Source: Escherichia phage HK6. Taken from it: a DNA stretch of 64,000 nt. Positions 15,401-42,009 of this stretch are shown one piece after another; the stretch's first letter is position 1, and each line of letters starts with the position of its first letter. The position numbers were made by a program, and so were the translations under genes. The notes beneath the pieces are model-generated. The model was not told the origin of the DNA. It saw nothing but the letters and a program-made list of their open reading frames with translations, and did no database searches. Location of the stretch: the sequence record PP724615.1. One strand, written 5' to 3'.

Positions 15401-15829
15401 ATGTTCAATAATGTATTCTCTAAAGAAGCTAACCCAATTTTGGTTAACTTTTGGCGTACTCTCCCAGCTAGCCTGTATAATGAGGCTATTAACTCCTTGA
15501 AAATATGGTGTGAGAATAATGAAATCTCCTTTGCTTTTAAAGATGATATTGATGAGGCCCCCTGTATTGGTTTAATTGTTCAGGTAGAGGAGGGTCTTGA
15601 GGAGATTGTCGGCTGGAAAGAGTTAGATGAAATAGGCTTAGTTTTTGCGTTAAACTATAAGCTGTTTATGCCTGCTAAGCATCGCCTCGTTGTTAACTAT
15701 AAAACTAGTGAATCTCCTGGTTTTCAAGTTAATGAACGTTACGGTTGGTCTTACTTACCGGAAGAAGTAAATGATGGTATCCAAAAACTTCGCCGTTTTG
15801 GTTATCAAATTCCGGGTTTAACTGCTTAA
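15401..15829 (+). CDS. hypothetical protein, paralog A of a tandem pair
   Basis: 142 aa; shares PCIG, W.EL...GL.(V/F)ALN, (I/V)PGL blocks with the next ORF. Confidence 0.5.
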   Translation: MFNNVFSKEANPILVNFWRTLPASLYNEAINSLKIWCENNEISFAFKDDIDEAPCIGLIVQVEEGLEEIVGWKELDEIGLVFALNYKLFMPAKHRLVVNYKTSESPGFQVNERYGWSYLPEEVNDGIQKLRRFGYQIPGLTA

Positions 15830-15838
15830 GGAGGAAGA

Positions 15839-16231
15839 ATGGAACAAGTATATTGGCGTCAGATTGACCCTAGTTTGGTGAAGCGTGCGGAAAAGCTGCT
15901 ACAACGTTGGTTAGGGGTAAGGCAAGCCTCCTTCACTTTTCCGGAGCAGCAAACGGATGATCCCTGCATTGGCGTTTTCCTGTCTGGATATGCCGGGGAA
16001 TGGGAGATGGACTGGAATGAATTGTCAGCTATGGGTTTAATTGTTGCCCTAAACTTCTCTATATTCCATCCACGTGGTTTGGCCATATGTCGCGTGCCTG
16101 ATGACGGTTGTTCGCCCCATCTTTTACAGGTGGAAAATGATATTTGGGAGTACACTCCAGATATTCTCGCAGAAGCTAAAGAACAATTAAATCGTGTTGG
16201 GATTTATGTTCCGGGATTAAATGATGAATAA
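15839..16231 (+). CDS. hypothetical protein, paralog B of a tandem pair
   Basis: 130 aa; colinear similarity (roughly 25-30% identity by eye) to 15401-15829. Confidence 0.5.
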   Translation: MEQVYWRQIDPSLVKRAEKLLQRWLGVRQASFTFPEQQTDDPCIGVFLSGYAGEWEMDWNELSAMGLIVALNFSIFHPRGLAICRVPDDGCSPHLLQVENDIWEYTPDILAEAKEQLNRVGIYVPGLNDE

Positions 16232-16418
16232 GGAATTTTGGAAAATAAAAGGGAAGATTTCTAAGTGGAATACTACAGGGAAAATTAGTAAGTCTCTAGA
16301 GATAGAGATAGCTAGAATGTTTACTGATCCTAATTTTGATATAGAAAAACTAAGCAAAGTAGATGCTAAAAAAGTAGATAAGTATATAGAAGAGATTAGA
16401 AGTATTTTAAGTGTCTAA
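16221..16418 (+). CDS. hypothetical protein
   Basis: 65-aa Lys/Glu-rich ORF, last before the terminator. Confidence 0.35.
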   Translation: MMNKEFWKIKGKISKWNTTGKISKSLEIEIARMFTDPNFDIEKLSKVDAKKVDKYIEEIRSILSV

Positions 16419-16424
16419 TCCACG

Positions 16425-16452
16425 TAACCGAGTCATTTTGGCTCGGTTTTAT
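16425..16452 (+). terminator. rho-independent terminator
   Basis: AACCGAGTC-ATTTTG-GCTCGGTT hairpin followed by TTTAT. Confidence 0.6.
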
Positions 16453-16494
16453 CCGTACTCAAGACCAATGATAGCACCATCCGGAAAATTTTAC

Positions 16495-16523
16495 TTGCAG
16501 GATGCCCAAAATCTTGATATAAT
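16495..16523 (+). promoter_or_regulatory. sigma70-type early promoter
   Basis: TTGCAG, 17 bp, TATAAT followed by ATTTATATTGAATTGAGAGA box. Confidence 0.55.
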
Positions 16524-17021
16524 ATTTATATTGAATTGAGAGACATTAGTAAAAATTGATTTTGCTAATTTTTCTTGTTTACAATCCGCGATACGGAACA
16601 GTTAGGCTGCCCCATTAAGGGTTGTTTTAACTGTTACGTGTTAGTTTTTAAACAAATAGTTAATAGAATACTTAGCGATCTACATCCCGTAGGAACCCTG
16701 GTAAGGCCTCGAAGCAACCTAGTGTGAGGTGGTTGTGAAGTGAGACGGGAAGAGTGAAAAACTCTGAGAAGTGATGACGTAAGGTATACTGCATCTAGTA
16801 TGAGCTAGTACATGAAGCATTAGGTGAGCAAATCTGGCTTAGCGGCCATCCTCAAGGATTTGTGCGGTATAGTGAAGCGGCAGTGTAGCGTGAAAGGGGA
16901 AGTTGCCACCCCCCTTCAGTATTTGCGATTAATTGTTGAGAAATTGACAGTAACAGTTGTTCTATTCTTTCTGAATAGTCCTAAAGAAAACTTATTTCAT
17001 TTCCAACACAGGAGTATTGTT

Positions 17022-19811
17022 GTGTTCTCAATCCTACAAGGTCATGCAGGATTTCATCGCGACTTAGCCACAGGCATTTGGCGAGAAGTTAAAGCAGAAG
17101 ACTATCTTTTTGCTAAAAGATTTTCCTCAAAGCATCCTGAAGGTAAACCAGCTTCAATGCCCTTCAAGTTTGATGTAATTGATGAAGTTGATCCTCAAAC
17201 CCTAGTAGAAATGCTCCCTCTTATGAGACGTTTAACGTCTGACCCTCATATCGTTGCGGTACGAGGTCGATGTCTTGCACCCAAAAATAACGTGCGGCGT
17301 AAGAAGGGCAACTTTAATGTATCTAACCCAAGTCATATAATTGCATTGGACGTGGATGGTATTGTAGATACAGGTGGTTGTAACAAGTTTGATCTTGTTG
17401 GCATGGCTCGACATATTATTAGGATGTTAAATAGTATTAGTGAGGATATGTTTCCTCTTGATGCAGGGTTTATTGCTCATGCATCGTCTTCGGCTGGGCT
17501 AAAACCAGGTATCCGAATGCACTTAATACTAGAATCTAATGTTAAAGTAACTCAGGGTCAAATCAAATTCTTATTTACATCTATCAACGAAAGTAGTAGA
17601 CAAAAGTATGGCTTTGATATTGCCGACTTAGCTTATTACTCTTCCGTACAGCTCCATTATTTTGCAGATCCGTTATTTACCGATGGTATAGTAGATCCGT
17701 TTAAAGCGGAGGGTGCCTCACGTCTGGTATTTGTTAAGGGTTCTAAAGTAAATTTACCTAATAATCTGGTTGACTATGAAACAACTAGAGGTGAGTTTAA
17801 AGAGGAGTTCTACTCTTTACTCGACCAAATTAAGGGTAAAAAAGCTGCCTCTGATAAAGTAGAGGAAACTATCAGCGAACTAGAAGAAGCTGAGGATGGA
17901 GTGTACCTACGTATTATACCTAAACTCTATCATAGAGCTTTGGAGGATGGTGTTGATTTTGCATGGCTAGAAAAAGAAATCCGTCCAGCCTTATCAGAAT
18001 ATATTGCAACTAAAGATAATAGTCGCAATATTCAAGATTACTTTAATAACGGTCGTAAGCAGGCTCTAAAAGCATTTGTTAATAATTCTAAACGTGATAT
18101 ACCTGATGTTTTAAAAGGTATTCCACTTAAAAAGCTAGAAACTAACTCTCTAGAAACTGATAACTTCTTGAAATTAAATACTGTACCACCAGAAGGTTAT
18201 ATGACTTTTGTAAAAGCAAGTCTAGGTACAGGTAAAACTACGGCGGTTGTGCGTTGGTTAGATTCAGGAGTTATTAAAGGTAATTTCTTAGCAATTACCA
18301 ATACTCGAGCACTGGTATCTTCAAATGCTAAGAAATTTAGTGCAGGACAATATGATAAGTCTGTAGATATGCTTAATTTTAAGCGTGGCGCTATTGACCG
18401 TATGTCCACAACTATACATTCTTTGCATAAGTTCAAGAGTTTTATTGGTCAAATTGATGCAATCTTTATCGATGAATGTGATGCTGTAATGAATGACCTA
18501 TTATTCGCCCCGGTTGTTAAACAACGTCGTGAATGTATTCAGGTTCTTCGGGATATTCTTGCAACTGCAAAAATCATTATATTATCTGATGGGGATATTA
18601 GTGCAGAAACAATTGAAGCATACGGTTCTTTGATTGAGTTTGATAAACCAGTAGCATTTTATAATCATCACCGTAAGATGCTGTCAAAAGCTCATGCTTA
18701 TGAGTTCCCTGACGAATCCAGTATTTGGGTTGCACTTCAGACTTCTCTAGAGATGGGTGAGAAATCTATCCTAGTATCTGACTGTGGTCCAGATGAACTG
18801 AATGAGAAGGGCATGGCGTTGCGTCGTAATACGGGTGCGTTAGTTAAGGAAATCCACTCAAACTCTACGTCTGATGTAGATATTCGACGTATTCTGGATT
18901 ACACAACTAATGAGTTAATTGACCAACAAATTGATTGCTTATTATGTAGCCCATCCGTAACGAGCGGTGTTGACTTTAACTATTTTGATAACGTATTCGT
19001 TATTACTAGGACCAGTAACCAAGCGCCAAACATGCGTTTTCAAGCAATCAGGCGCGACCGTGGCGCTCAGAACATTTATTATTTTATTGATAAATCTACG
19101 AGTGGATTCTCCGCAGGTTCTGAGCAATATAACATTGACGAGGGTTGGCTGGAGTTAGCACAGCAATTATACGCACGTCGCAGAGAGCTGGAATCTAGGA
19201 ACTATACTAGTACTTTACGTTACTATTTGCTTGATCAGGGTGCAACTATTGATATTTTCAGTGAAAGCTGGGGAACTATCGAAGGTGCGGGGAAAGAATA
19301 TACAGAAGAGCGAATCAAAGCCATTTTGTATTCAACCCCTGATTATTGTGCTCCACGCCATGCAGATGCGTATGAAGCTAAACTACTTCTTGTACGCTAT
19401 TATCATCTTGAGTCTATTAAAGATGTAACAGTTGAGCATGTTGAACAATATATCAAGGATAAACCGAATGATCGAGCTGCATTCTTCCATAAGATGCACG
19501 AGATGTTCTGGGAAGATATTAAGAAGTGTTCAAATGTCACTATCAAACCATTCATAGAAGCTCTGAAAGGTAAGAAGAAAGATTTCTTCCTTAAAACAGG
19601 TCAGAGTGCTAACCCAAAATATGCAAGAATGTATCTTGGTATGATGGGTATTGGTAAGGATATGAACACGGAGAATATTGTAGACTGGTACAGAACCTAT
19701 TGTAAAATCGAGTGTATGCCAATCCCATATAAGTTTATGACTGATGAGGAGAAACATATGCATGATGAAGCAATGGCAGAGCTAGGTGCTAGAAATGACA
19801 GTGAAGAATAA
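17022..19811 (+). CDS. putative replication origin-binding-type helicase/ATPase
   Basis: Walker A ASLGTGKTT and Walker B IFIDECD mid-protein. Track ORF starts 16824; in-frame GTG 17022 preceded by GGAG (17011-17014) is the more plausible start. Confidence 0.55.
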   Translation: MFSILQGHAGFHRDLATGIWREVKAEDYLFAKRFSSKHPEGKPASMPFKFDVIDEVDPQTLVEMLPLMRRLTSDPHIVAVRGRCLAPKNNVRRKKGNFNVSNPSHIIALDVDGIVDTGGCNKFDLVGMARHIIRMLNSISEDMFPLDAGFIAHASSSAGLKPGIRMHLILESNVKVTQGQIKFLFTSINESSRQKYGFDIADLAYYSSVQLHYFADPLFTDGIVDPFKAEGASRLVFVKGSKVNLPNNLVDYETTRGEFKEEFYSLLDQIKGKKAASDKVEETISELEEAEDGVYLRIIPKLYHRALEDGVDFAWLEKEIRPALSEYIATKDNSRNIQDYFNNGRKQALKAFVNNSKRDIPDVLKGIPLKKLETNSLETDNFLKLNTVPPEGYMTFVKASLGTGKTTAVVRWLDSGVIKGNFLAITNTRALVSSNAKKFSAGQYDKSVDMLNFKRGAIDRMSTTIHSLHKFKSFIGQIDAIFIDECDAVMNDLLFAPVVKQRRECIQVLRDILATAKIIILSDGDISAETIEAYGSLIEFDKPVAFYNHHRKMLSKAHAYEFPDESSIWVALQTSLEMGEKSILVSDCGPDELNEKGMALRRNTGALVKEIHSNSTSDVDIRRILDYTTNELIDQQIDCLLCSPSVTSGVDFNYFDNVFVITRTSNQAPNMRFQAIRRDRGAQNIYYFIDKSTSGFSAGSEQYNIDEGWLELAQQLYARRRELESRNYTSTLRYYLLDQGATIDIFSESWGTIEGAGKEYTEERIKAILYSTPDYCAPRHADAYEAKLLLVRYYHLESIKDVTVEHVEQYIKDKPNDRAAFFHKMHEMFWEDIKKCSNVTIKPFIEALKGKKKDFFLKTGQSANPKYARMYLGMMGIGKDMNTENIVDWYRTYCKIECMPIPYKFMTDEEKHMHDEAMAELGARNDSEE

Positions 19812-39351: not shown

Positions 39352-42009
39352 TTATGGCAGATCGTTGTTAACCACATTGCCCTTCAACGCAGCTATCTCC
39401 GCTTTCAAACTATCAATTTCTGCTTTGAGCGCTTGAGTGGCGCCCATCAAGTCCATAATAATAGGGTTAGTATCAATTGAAGGTCTGTCTCGGGTCTTCT
39501 GTGAAACAATTTTCTTCTCGACTTCACGACGAATAAATTTCTGTTCAATGCGTTGTTCTTTGATTTGTTCTGTAATACCAGTTTCGGGGTCGGTATAATC
39601 TACAGTAACCTCTACAGGTACATCCTCGTATATATCCTTATAAACATCCTCGTATACATCCTCATAAATCTCTTCATTGTGCTTCACATATTGTGGGGTG
39701 ACTTTCTCCGATTCTTCTGCAATAATACCAAATCTTATTCTTTCTTGTTCATCATCCTTATAAATAAAAGTGACCATGCGTTGTGCCATGATGCGGTTTA
39801 AAGCATCAATAGGATTACCGTCATTGATCTCCTTTTTATATGCTAAGCCAGATGTTCCTTGCAGTGCAAGGGTTCCGGCAGCACTCGGAAGCCTAATCCA
39901 ATACTCAGGCGAACCTGCTGGGGTATATGTTTGAAATCCATAGCTCCCTACAGTTTCGCTAAATCCAACACGGGTTCGAATAACTCCATTTGCTGCTAAG
40001 TTACAAGCATAAGACGCTGCACCATTGGATCTAAACGTTGCAGCGTCGGTTCCTGCTTCCCCGCCACCTGCTACAATCCGCCCGGTAATATAGGTAGAGA
40101 ACGCAAGTGTAATCCCAGTACCCGCACCCCCAATGATTACCGGAGTAGAATGATACGTGCCATCCTCATTGTAGTAGTAGAATGCATAGGCCCCGCTGGC
40201 AGCATGCCCTGATCGCCATCTTACAGTAGATGGACTGGAAGGTCCAGTATAGGCTGTGTAAGCCGTACCCGCACCCGTCGCTCTAACTAATAGGCTGTCT
40301 TGACTATAGCTCCCAGTTGTCCTGAGCTGACCAACTTCCCCAAATGAATTAGTCTTGTGAGATGGTAGCGTGACTGTTTTAGCTGAAGCGCTGTAGTTAA
40401 AGACAGCATTAGTGCTACTAGTATTATTCTCCTGGAGTCGTATGCTACCGCCATCCATAACCATAACATAGCCAGTTACATCACCTGCGGCGTCAACTTC
40501 TTCAAATTTAATTGTTGGGTTAGCACTCTTGATTAAAAGAGGGTCACTAGCGGTCGCCCCAAATTCTGCATTAAGGTTAAACTTCTGCTTTTTGGTAAAA
40601 GTATTTTCAGCACCAAGTCTAGCTATGCTGGAAGGGTCCATTGAATCCACATACCCTTTCGCACGGTTAGCTTCCTCTGTTGCTAGGGTAGCTTTCTGCC
40701 CTGCGGTTGTAGCGCTGCCTGCGGCTGCTGTAGCTTGTTTCACCGCTTCGGTTGCACTAGCACCCGCTTGAGTTGCAGAAGCTGCGGCAGCGTCTTTTAG
40801 TGGGGTTATTGCATTAATTGCTTCCGTCTTAGCTGTATTAACTTCTTTGACTGCGTCGGCTTTAGCTGTTGCGACTTCAGTCAACGCGGAGTCTTTAATT
40901 GCTTGAGTATCTGTTTTTAACTGAGTAACGTCAGCCTTAATCTGAGTAACTGTAGCTACAGCAGCGTTAGTTGTGTTAGCAGACCCCGCCGCGTCAGCTT
41001 GTGCTTGTCTAGCAGCCTCTTCACTAGCTTTTGAGTTAGTTTCACTAGCTTTTGAGTTAGTTTCTGAATTTTTTGCTGCAGCAGCAGCAGCAGTAGCCTG
41101 CGTAGCGAATATTTCTGCCTCATCCCTGAATCCTTTGGAATCAGAAGCAGATGCAGCACTACTAGCAGCGTTAGTTTCTGAAGTTTTAGCTGCGGAAGCG
41201 GATGCAGCAGCGTTAGTTTCTGAAGCTTTTGCAGCTGCAGCAGAAGCAGCCGCAGCCGTTTCTGAGGTTTTAGCCGCTGAAGCAGAAGCAGACGCAGCAG
41301 TTTTGCTACTATTAGCATTAGTCTCAGAAGTTTTAGCCGCTGTTTCACTAGCTTTTGCATTAGTCTCAGAAGTTTTAGCTGCGGTTTCACTAGCTTTTGC
41401 GTTGGTTTCTGAAATTTTTGCTGCTGTTTCACTAGCTTTTGCATTAGTCTCAGAAGTCTTAGCAGCTTTAGCACTGTTAGCAGAAGCAGTAGCAGAAGAA
41501 GCAGAAGCAGTAGCAGAAGAAACAGACTGAGCTGCAGAAGAAGCAGACTGAGTTGCAGATTGTTGAGAAGATCCTGCGGAAATTTCTGCTTCATTCTCAG
41601 AAGTTTTAGCCGCTATTTCACTTGCTTTTGCGTTAGTTTCTGAAGTTTTAGCCGCTATTTCACTTGCTTTTGCATTGGTCTCAGAAGTCTTAGCAGCTTT
41701 AGCACTATTAGCCGAAGCAGTAGCAGAAGACGCAGACTGAGTTGCAGATTGCTGGGAAGATGTTGCGGAAATTTCAGCTTCATTCTCAGAGTCTTTAGCA
41801 CTTAATTCTGACTGTTTAGCATTAATCTCAGATTGCTTAGCTGCTGCAGCGGATGCTTTAGAGGACTCTATAGCAGAGGTTAGCTCTGCAGCAGTAATGG
41901 AGCTAATTGTATTCCCAAGAACTACAGTGTATTTAGGGTATTTACTTGCAGTTACACTATTTTGGTCCATAGTGACCATTTGTTGTAAAATTATTTTCGT
42001 TATAGCCAT
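39352..42009 (-). CDS. L-shaped tail fibre protein with C-terminal intramolecular chaperone
   Basis: 885 aa; long Ala/Ser/Thr repeat region; C-terminal IDALNRIMAQRMVTFIYKDD...RIRFGIIAEESEKVTPQYV resembles peptidase S74 chaperone domains. Confidence 0.7.
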   Translation of the reverse strand: MAITKIILQQMVTMDQNSVTASKYPKYTVVLGNTISSITAAELTSAIESSKASAAAAKQSEINAKQSELSAKDSENEAEISATSSQQSATQSASSATASANSAKAAKTSETNAKASEIAAKTSETNAKASEIAAKTSENEAEISAGSSQQSATQSASSAAQSVSSATASASSATASANSAKAAKTSETNAKASETAAKISETNAKASETAAKTSETNAKASETAAKTSETNANSSKTAASASASAAKTSETAAAASAAAAKASETNAAASASAAKTSETNAASSAASASDSKGFRDEAEIFATQATAAAAAAKNSETNSKASETNSKASEEAARQAQADAAGSANTTNAAVATVTQIKADVTQLKTDTQAIKDSALTEVATAKADAVKEVNTAKTEAINAITPLKDAAAASATQAGASATEAVKQATAAAGSATTAGQKATLATEEANRAKGYVDSMDPSSIARLGAENTFTKKQKFNLNAEFGATASDPLLIKSANPTIKFEEVDAAGDVTGYVMVMDGGSIRLQENNTSSTNAVFNYSASAKTVTLPSHKTNSFGEVGQLRTTGSYSQDSLLVRATGAGTAYTAYTGPSSPSTVRWRSGHAASGAYAFYYYNEDGTYHSTPVIIGGAGTGITLAFSTYITGRIVAGGGEAGTDAATFRSNGAASYACNLAANGVIRTRVGFSETVGSYGFQTYTPAGSPEYWIRLPSAAGTLALQGTSGLAYKKEINDGNPIDALNRIMAQRMVTFIYKDDEQERIRFGIIAEESEKVTPQYVKHNEEIYEDVYEDVYKDIYEDVPVEVTVDYTDPETGITEQIKEQRIEQKFIRREVEKKIVSQKTRDRPSIDTNPIIMDLMGATQALKAEIDSLKAEIAALKGNVVNNDLP
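40985..41800 (-). repeat. tandem and segmental coding repeats within the tail-fibre gene
   Basis: Near-identical ~39-nt units (TTTTAGCCGC..TTTCACTAGCTTTTGC..TTAGTTTCTGAAG) recur at least 5 times; ~100-nt segment at ~41455-41600 duplicated at ~41680-41790. Confidence 0.7.

Follow-up and report, generated by a model that had tools for sequence, protein, structure and literature searches.

Comparative evidence for a large structured RNA in the untranslated leader of the D2 helicase gene of T5-like phages

What occupies the interval between the last small early gene and the helicase gene D2 of T5-like phages? In T5 itself this interval measures ~620 nt with no gene in between; the T5 annotation places there a putative promoter and a D2 start that is the same as GTG 17022 of the sequence described here. 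In other records the D2 start is placed elsewhere, or small open reading frames (ORFs) are put into the gap. We analysed the interval in a 64,000-nt stretch of Escherichia phage HK6 (PP724615.1), called the window in the following, which derives from a T5-like phage. Its positions 16400-17100 are 99.6% identical to Salmonella phage Th1 and, used as a query, match 535 phage records. A first-pass annotation of this DNA had proposed a structured non-coding leader with the architecture either of a structured regulatory RNA or of iterons or an origin beside an initiator gene; every feature that it listed exists, no more than a few bases from the positions given. The gene in question is the following.

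17022-19811, + strand: D2, 929 amino acids (aa), database name 'replication origin binding protein'

Its sole Pfam match is the Herpes_ori_bp helicase core (PF02399, residues 394-533) and the protein is a member of PHROG 3712. D2 of T5 is a characterised bipolar SF2 helicase, and the 'origin-binding' name reflects its resemblance to herpesvirus UL9 and no mapped origin (PMC3632103). Bipolarity makes the T5 enzyme biochemically unusual.

The interval from around 16530 to 17021 is the ~490-nt untranslated leader of the D2 helicase mRNA. We assign a probability of about 0.9 to the conclusion that this leader forms a large conserved RNA fold of ~15 helices, which is a selected RNA structure. Two features delimit the leader.

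16495-16523, + strand: promoter, with -35 TTGCAG (16495-16500), a 17-nt spacer, a TGn extended -10 and -10 TATAAT (16518-16523)
17010-17024, + strand: Shine-Dalgarno sequence AGGAG (17010-17014) and GTG start (17022-17024) of D2, from the sequence and the T5 annotation

The promoter had already been recognised in the first-pass annotation and lies where T5 has its putative promoter. It is kept in all Markadamsvirinae-type leaders, including those of Pectobacterium and Erwinia phages, and transcription would start near 16530. A simple promoter scan missed it because the -35 matches only 3/6; its pick instead was a second promoter-like site, TTGATT-18-TACAAT at 16556-16585, which is not conserved in the Erwinia/Pantoea group. 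The GTG start at 17022 with its Shine-Dalgarno sequence likewise agrees with the earlier proposal and with T5, and D2 homologues all begin MF(S/T)(I/V)L at the equivalent position. A longer ORF starting at 16824, suspected from the outset not to be translated, does exist, but relatives carry in-frame stops 0-42 codons upstream, and no conserved peptide was found in any of the six frames of the leader. Since no frame is conserved, the extension is closed by stops and the homologues share a common start, we take 17022 to be the right start and the leader to be non-coding. Terminator-like sites numbered zero in 16200-17200, so there are none between promoter and D2 start codon. The local GC and purine richness reported for this region is real: GC content is 0.46-0.50 over about 16650-16950, with positive GC skew, against 0.29-0.37 in the flanks, and a 237-nt core is 59% purine.

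Evidence for the fold is comparative. D2 loci were gathered from IMG/VR, GenBank phages and metagenomes, of which the metagenomes contributed no more than 11 loci, and gave 42 distinct Enterobacterales-phage leaders. Th1-type and T5-type leaders are near-identical over the promoter region, over a 25-nt box just downstream of it (16591-16615) and over the final 70 nt preceding the start codon. The central ~300 nt have 20-60% identity and are nearly unalignable between lineages, against flanks of about 100% identity; nonetheless the length of the domain is 319-332 nt in six lineages. The decisive test was confined to substitutions inside the two large groups, where the alignment is unambiguous and independent of structure. 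Double compensatory changes, wobbles and breaks number 6, 1 and 1 in the Th1-type group and 6, 3 and 1 in the T5-type group. Pooled, the 18 variable pairs comprise 12 that are double compensatory, 4 that wobble and 2 that are broken. When the 3' partner was slid by 1-3 nt, 0-1 compensatory changes and 7-14 breaks remained; random partners yielded a mean of ~0.1 compensatory changes, and 0 of 2000 trials reached 6. Covariation across T5-like phages, which had been suggested as the check on a structured RNA, thus strongly supports it.

Analyses across lineages point in the same direction. RNAalifold on 6 variants predicts 92 pairs, and compensatory changes occur in 34 of these. The Th1-type (16 sequences) and T5-type (15 sequences) leaders, each folded separately with alifold, give the same overall plan, and single-sequence folds of six lineages have the same helix order in the 5' half. 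After registration of the helices by hand in 38 distinct sequences from 6 lineages, 55/70 pairs carry compensatory changes and 99.6% of cells are paired, a count that is biased towards pairing for 3-bp helices because the pairing segments were chosen. In a structure-guided alignment of the P3 module (see below) from five lineages, 93.9% of cells are paired and 16/26 pairs change on both sides; shuffles give 5.2 pairs (0/500 reach the observed value) and slid partners 3-7.

The model consists of a core domain of ~330 nt (16628-16959), in which P1 and P2 close two multi-helix subdomains, and of flanking elements.

16545-16569, + strand: H1, leader hairpin UUAGUAAAA / UUUUGCUAA, overlapping the promoter-like site 16556-16585
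16570-16576 and 16984-16990, + strand: possible outermost helix, an inverted repeat with 5' strand UUUUCUU and 3' strand AAGAAAA
16591-16615, + strand: conserved 5' box ATACGGAACAGTTAGGCTGCCCCAT, near-invariant across lineages and unique in the window
16599-16609, + strand: P0, small hairpin CAG-UUAGG-CUG inside the 5' box, with CAG/CUG changed to CGG/CCG in Erwinia/Pantoea
16628-16672 / 16918-16959, + strand: P1, closing stem, ~38 bp, irregular, five segments, from the constrained fold
16680-16888, + strand: core enclosed by the covarying helix P2 (CUACA 16680-16684 / UGUAG 16884-16888)
16686-16749, + strand: 5' subdomain, a three-way junction with P6 (16686-16690/16745-16749) and P6a (16697-16699/16704-16706)
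16708-16711/16741-16744 (outer) and 16714-16719/16731-16736 (inner), + strand: P6b, in the 5' subdomain
16751-16765, + strand: P7, hairpin AGAG-UGAAAAA-CUCU, with A-U to G-C changes within the group
16766-16773, + strand: junction GAGAAGUG, conserved in 5/6 lineages
16785-16871, + strand: 3' subdomain, in which P3 (16785-16792/16864-16871) encloses P3a (16793-16825) and P4 (16828-16834/16857-16863)
16836-16847, + strand: apical hairpin GGC-UUAGCGG-CC on P4, invariant, once in the window
16848-16856, + strand: pyrimidine-rich asymmetric internal loop AUCCUCAAG, 3' of the apical hairpin
16894-16916, + strand: P5, covarying hairpin AAGGGG (16894-16899) / CCCCUU (16911-16916)
16962-16978, + strand: P8, small hairpin CUAUUC / GAAUAG between the domain and the ribosome-binding site, with no U-run after it

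P1 is built of segments of 10+11+5+5+7 bp separated by bulges of 1-4 nt, which is long enough for the ~20 bp length of an RNase III substrate, and a long closing stem is predicted in all lineages. Its outer 9 bp have compensatory changes at 6 positions across lineages; in the inner part, 8 changes are wobble-compatible and 1 breaks a pair. Covariation of P2 is seen both inside lineages and from one lineage to another (CUGCG/CGCAG, CUGUG/CACAG, CUAGA/UCUAG, CUGCA/UGCAG). The 5' subdomain has the same architecture in single-sequence folds of 6 lineages, with compensatory changes in every helix. P5 is the GC hairpin of the first-pass annotation; it covaries from G-C to U-A within the group and appears as AUAUGA/UCAUAU in T5 and as GGAGGA/UCUUCC in the Erwinia-like leader L107. 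The Erwinia/Pantoea leaders, as a third group, contribute further compensatory changes in P0, P2, P6b, P7, P4 and P5. T5-type leaders lack the GAGAAGUG junction and have no clear P7. The apical hairpin is the signature of the element: TTAGCGG is found in 42/42 distinct Enterobacterales-phage leaders, including those of Proteus and Providencia phages with diverged surroundings, and its closing pair covaries (G-C, A-U, C-G). The hairpin also has an invariant U·G. The outermost helix would enclose the whole leader structure. It is predicted in both group alifolds and in the constrained fold, and My1 has AUUGCU/AGCAAU at equivalent places as read from the alignment; its support is weaker than that of the core helices. 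A fold forced to contain all model helices is just 3 kcal/mol less stable than the unconstrained optimum. As a separate observation, the internal loop at 16848-16856 and its equivalents (L064, L065, L107, L110, L111) resemble the 3' end of 16S rRNA (CCUCCUUA in DU_PP_V).

The substitutions also identify the strand. G·U pairs are frequent, and U-A to U·G and A-U to G·U changes occur in P1, P3 and P6b. Because these pairs and exchanges fit only the + strand, the folded strand is that of the D2 mRNA. Folding energy is unremarkable (z = -1.7 on the + strand, -1.9 on the - strand) and was not used as evidence; the significance of the fold comes from the comparative data.

The same data bear on the repeats that had suggested an origin. 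An origin at the level of DNA, where D2 protein would bind iterons or inverted repeats, would explain why three AACAGTT-containing copies and GTGA repeats adjoin a gene with an 'origin binding' annotation. The 12-nt inverted repeat is present (16593-16604 / 16628-16639, 92% complementary) and so is the third copy reported near 16952, namely GTAACAGTT at 16950-16958, perfectly complementary to 16629-16637. This third copy, however, is a P1 strand: TAACTGTTAC (16628-16637) and GTAACAGTT are the two strands of the outer P1 helix and change together, to AACUAUUAC/GUAAUAGUU in T5, GAUUAUUAU/AUAAUAAUU in DU_PP_V, GGUUAUUAU/AUAAUAACC in My1 and GGCUUA/UAAGCU in a further lineage. The upstream copy AACAGTTA (16593-16604, in the 5' box) stays fixed while the P1 strands change, and because it does not follow them we regard the 12-nt inverted repeat as an accident of this lineage. 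It is broken in T5-type and Pectobacterium phages, and the alternative pairing that it offers against P1 is not conserved. The reported GTGAAG/GTGAAA units correspond to a real enrichment of GTGA (8 copies in the 237-nt core versus 1.4 expected, P<0.001), but no other lineage shows the enrichment, and it is only here that the units fall at helix ends and junctions; we therefore rejected a conserved, repeated protein site made of GTGA or GNRA motifs. Direct repeats in the region are only short two-copy families, short of the at least three conserved, spaced sites of an iteron array. Substitutions of the G·U type suit RNA and not duplex DNA sites, and the name of the gene rests only on helicase-domain similarity to herpesvirus UL9. 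An origin of the iteron type is thus extremely improbable. The first-pass annotation had tied its proposal to conservation in related genomes: the repeats are not kept there, the structure is.

How far does the element extend among phages? In fixed position before D2 it occurs in phages of Escherichia, Salmonella, Pectobacterium, Erwinia and Pantoea. Providencia phages also have the signature hairpin module, and Proteus phages have the hairpin motif, with P4 and UUAGCGG kept in a longer leader. The window holds a single copy, and the element always lies directly upstream of D2, with TTAGCGG ~184 nt upstream of the D2 start in six lineages. A first covariance model, R1, was built from one lineage only because MAFFT cannot register helices between lineages; for other lineages it scored barely above noise (14-18 bits), with equal-scoring false matches in coding DNA. 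A second model, R2, was made from the P3 module in the structure-guided alignment of five lineages. It scores 101.5 bits in this window, 64.6 bits in the Providencia-type leader L035, 63.2 bits in the Erwinia-like L107, 49.3 bits in Pectobacterium phage DU_PP_V, 44-45 bits in T5-type leaders and 39.2 bits in Providencia phage PSTCR5, which is outside the training set. On My1 and a further lineage (L030/L105) the score is weak and the place right. No competing match below E=5 was found in the 255 kb searched. A sequence-only profile (nhmmer, 9 lineages) detected nothing in Proteus, Providencia, Vibrio or other leaders, R2 found nothing in Vibrio-phage leaders, and more distant D2 homologues have no leader at all.

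We class the D2 leader as a new family within an already known general type of RNA, namely structured mRNA leaders or structured phage RNAs; for a phage leader it is unusually large. Rfam 15 (cmscan) contains no family for the region at permissive E-values or for the leaders of 14 related loci at the gathering score; the only match in the region, to the archaeal C/D box snoRNA sR17 (17.4 bits against a gathering score of 36, E=0.57), is noise. A scan of the window for tRNA and tmRNA found none. The searchable literature, including the D2 helicase paper and the T5 and BF23 transcription papers, makes no mention of a leader RNA, and we know of nothing on the regulation of D2.

What, then, might the RNA do? 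The most likely role, at about even odds, is that the leader acts in cis on D2 expression, as a protein operator, through RNase III processing or through mRNA stability. Transcription from the extended -10 promoter at 16495-16523 would read through into D2, and the leader RNA would act on this message and set the amount of helicase made. The invariant apical hairpin may be the site recognised by a protein, which could be D2 or a different early protein of phage or host. The long P1 duplex may serve both as an RNase III-type processing substrate and as a shield for the long untranslated leader, and the G-rich, C-poor, tightly folded RNA would protect the 490-nt untranslated stretch. The outcome would be controlled mRNA stability and translation. 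Position and conservation argue for such a role: the fold has a strong promoter upstream of it and the D2 ribosome-binding site downstream, and its spacing from the start codon is constant. Of the structured regulatory RNA proposed in the first-pass annotation, the conserved structure is borne out and the regulation is presumed.

Several points weigh against this reading. We infer the transcription start, the read-through into D2 and any processing. The short helices P6a and P3a were registered between lineages by hand, which favours pairing. Only about 8-12 nt are invariant, with no obvious ligand pocket or operator beyond the hairpin. The 330-nt domain is much larger than known phage translational operators. 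Finally, the ribosome-binding site is not clearly sequestered by conserved structure; in the model the last 30-40 nt before the D2 start, holding the Shine-Dalgarno sequence and the GTG, are largely unpaired. The P4 internal loop could pair with the Shine-Dalgarno sequence over 5-6 bp in the Pectobacterium and Erwinia/Pantoea groups and over only 3-4 bp in the window and T5, so that an anti-Shine-Dalgarno role of the loop is suggestive in two groups and a weak lead here. Two other candidate contacts were rejected, as the complementarity is found in some lineages only: a loop-loop pairing of P5 with P6b, and one between the 5' box and either the start region or other parts of the domain.

Known phage systems offer partial parallels. 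The autogenous operators of T4 (the gene 32 leader pseudoknot, the gene 43 operator and the RegA sites) are single hairpins or pseudoknots of some tens of nucleotides. Like them, the D2 element lies in the 5' leader of a phage replication gene, on the mRNA strand, and would set a protein level in cis. It differs from them in its ~330-nt domain of about 15 helices, shares no sequence or structure similarity with them, and protein binding is for the D2 leader a candidate property. RNase III-processed leaders such as the lambda N leader, the T7 R1.1-type sites and rRNA precursor stems share with P1 a long irregular duplex of distant segments on an early transcript. Known phage sites, however, are simple hairpins of ~20-30 bp, whereas P1 closes a large multi-junction core and is a predicted substrate.

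P1 also invites a different reading, in which the domain is excised, for example by RNase III in P1, to yield a stable RNA of ~250-330 nt with a trans-acting job of its own. Host takeover, an anti-defence decoy, a scaffold or a cofactor could be such jobs, and its position at D2 would then provide only early transcription. The ~38-bp closing duplex is a classical context for RNase III excision, the size and complexity (~15 helices) are closer to stand-alone large RNAs than to operators, the primary sequence turns over fast while the shape is kept, and the ribosome-binding site is not clearly sequestered. ROOL, GOLLD and HEARO-type RNAs are comparable in being multi-helix, covariation-supported, phage-encoded, of rapid sequence turnover and of no assigned biochemical role. 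Unlike these, the D2 leader RNA is smaller, belongs to Enterobacterales phages, has no Rfam match and lies within an mRNA leader at fixed distance from the start codon. This constant spacing in every lineage speaks against excision, as does the lack of a terminator or promoter of its own 3' of the domain. The RNA was also never found elsewhere, though all searched loci were gathered via the D2 homologue. We consider a trans-acting RNA unlikely.

A riboswitch-type sensor, which would bind a small molecule (e.g. a nucleotide-pool signal) and adjust D2 translation, would fit the 5' leader position, the multi-junction architecture and the few conserved junction sequences, GAUCU and GAGAAGUG. Measured against an aptamer core, the RNA has few invariant positions outside the UUAGCGG hairpin, and T5-type leaders are without the GAGAAGUG junction and a clear P7. 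There is no terminator and no obvious anti-Shine-Dalgarno switch, Rfam gave no match even at permissive E-values, and the alternative pairing of the 12-nt inverted repeat with P1 is not conserved. A sensor of this type is therefore very doubtful.

An origin could also act through the transcript. In a transcription-activated origin the structured, G-rich leader RNA would form a persistent RNA-DNA hybrid or a primer, to be used by D2 in starting T5 DNA synthesis. The strong promoter adjoins the gene of an initiator-like helicase, and the RNA is purine- and G-rich with positive GC skew. ColE1 RNA II likewise depends on a conserved fold, and together with the T4 ori(uvsY) and T7 primary origin transcripts it resembles the D2 leader as a promoter-driven, folded, G-rich transcript beside replication functions; unlike these, the D2 leader transcript continues into a protein-coding gene. 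The multiple internal origins of T5 are cited from electron microscopy only, with no sequence-level origin (PMC3632103), and in the literature searched we found no sequence-level map of the T5 replication start. Against a transcription-activated origin, selection is visible on RNA pairing only, the positive GC skew extends to neighbouring coding DNA, and more distant D2 homologues are without any leader. Conserved DNA-level repeats were not found; no search was aimed specifically at an AT-rich unwinding element or at DnaA boxes. We rate such an origin as quite improbable, and we see an equally slim chance that the leader is the RNA component of T5 replication initiation, recognised by D2 and priming or opening the DNA here. 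Recognition by D2, for example through the invariant UUAGCGG hairpin, would be similarly speculative. If true, such an RNA would mark a T5 origin and a new, RNA-dependent mode of initiation for a large virulent phage.

Some further observations concern the surroundings of the leader. One more feature lies between the upstream genes and the promoter.

16426-16448, + strand: hairpin AACCGAGTCA / TGGCTCGGTT followed by TTTT, an inverted repeat read as the terminator of the upstream small-ORF operon

Phages HdH2 and KEY have an annotated terminator at the equivalent place. The adjacent small genes 15401-15829 and 15839-16231 upstream of the leader are paralogous (31% identity, E=3e-19), the second encoding a DUF7415 protein, and look like a tandem duplication of an uncharacterised early gene. 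A 65-aa ORF at 16221-16418 (PHROG 29527, unknown function) is present in the window and in Th1 and is not in the T5 annotation of the interval. The stretch just upstream of the promoter varies among close relatives, with low identity in the first alignment columns. In Pantoea phage vB_PagS_AAS21 (L111:329-676), ~300 extra bases with an annotated 116-aa ORF, as compared to Erwinia phage KEY and a metagenomic relative, separate the upstream operon from the D2 leader and leave the RNA domain intact. In one phage (L028/L071) the central leader is of T5 type, whereas the 3' leader and the 5' end of D2 are of Th1 type. This mosaic implies recombination breakpoints inside or beside the RNA domain.

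Vibrio T5-like phages (Ermolyevavirinae and relatives) have ORF-free, purine-rich leaders of 650-1100 nt before the D2 homologue. These loci (L038, L039, L041, L080-L082, L087, L093) contain blocks conserved between divergent types and show no detectable similarity to the enterobacterial element. When a single-sequence fold was followed through them, 22 pairs were kept (5 compensatory, 17 wobble) and 21 broken; the slid control kept 5-10 (0-2 compensatory, 1-8 wobble) and broke 32-46. On another phage contig (IMGVR_UViG_3300043120_000090) a group I intron (Rfam RF00028, 95.3 bits, E=4.5e-23) is located at L075:246-543 on the - strand, ~2.5 kb upstream of a D2 homologue with 51% identity. Elsewhere in the window, an 885-aa ORF at 39352-42009 (- strand) contains tandem repeats of 21, 42 and 84 nt, of Ala/Ser/Glu-rich type, especially at 41020-41700; an R1 match of 18 bits at 41150-41241, inside this repetitive ORF, is spurious.

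With this analysis, annotations that extend or mis-start D2, or that place small ORFs in its leader, are corrected. The vague idea of an origin near an 'origin-binding protein' is turned into testable alternatives, with precise helices and one invariant hairpin as targets for mutation. T5 is a classical model phage, and a large, covariation-supported element is now defined before its helicase gene.

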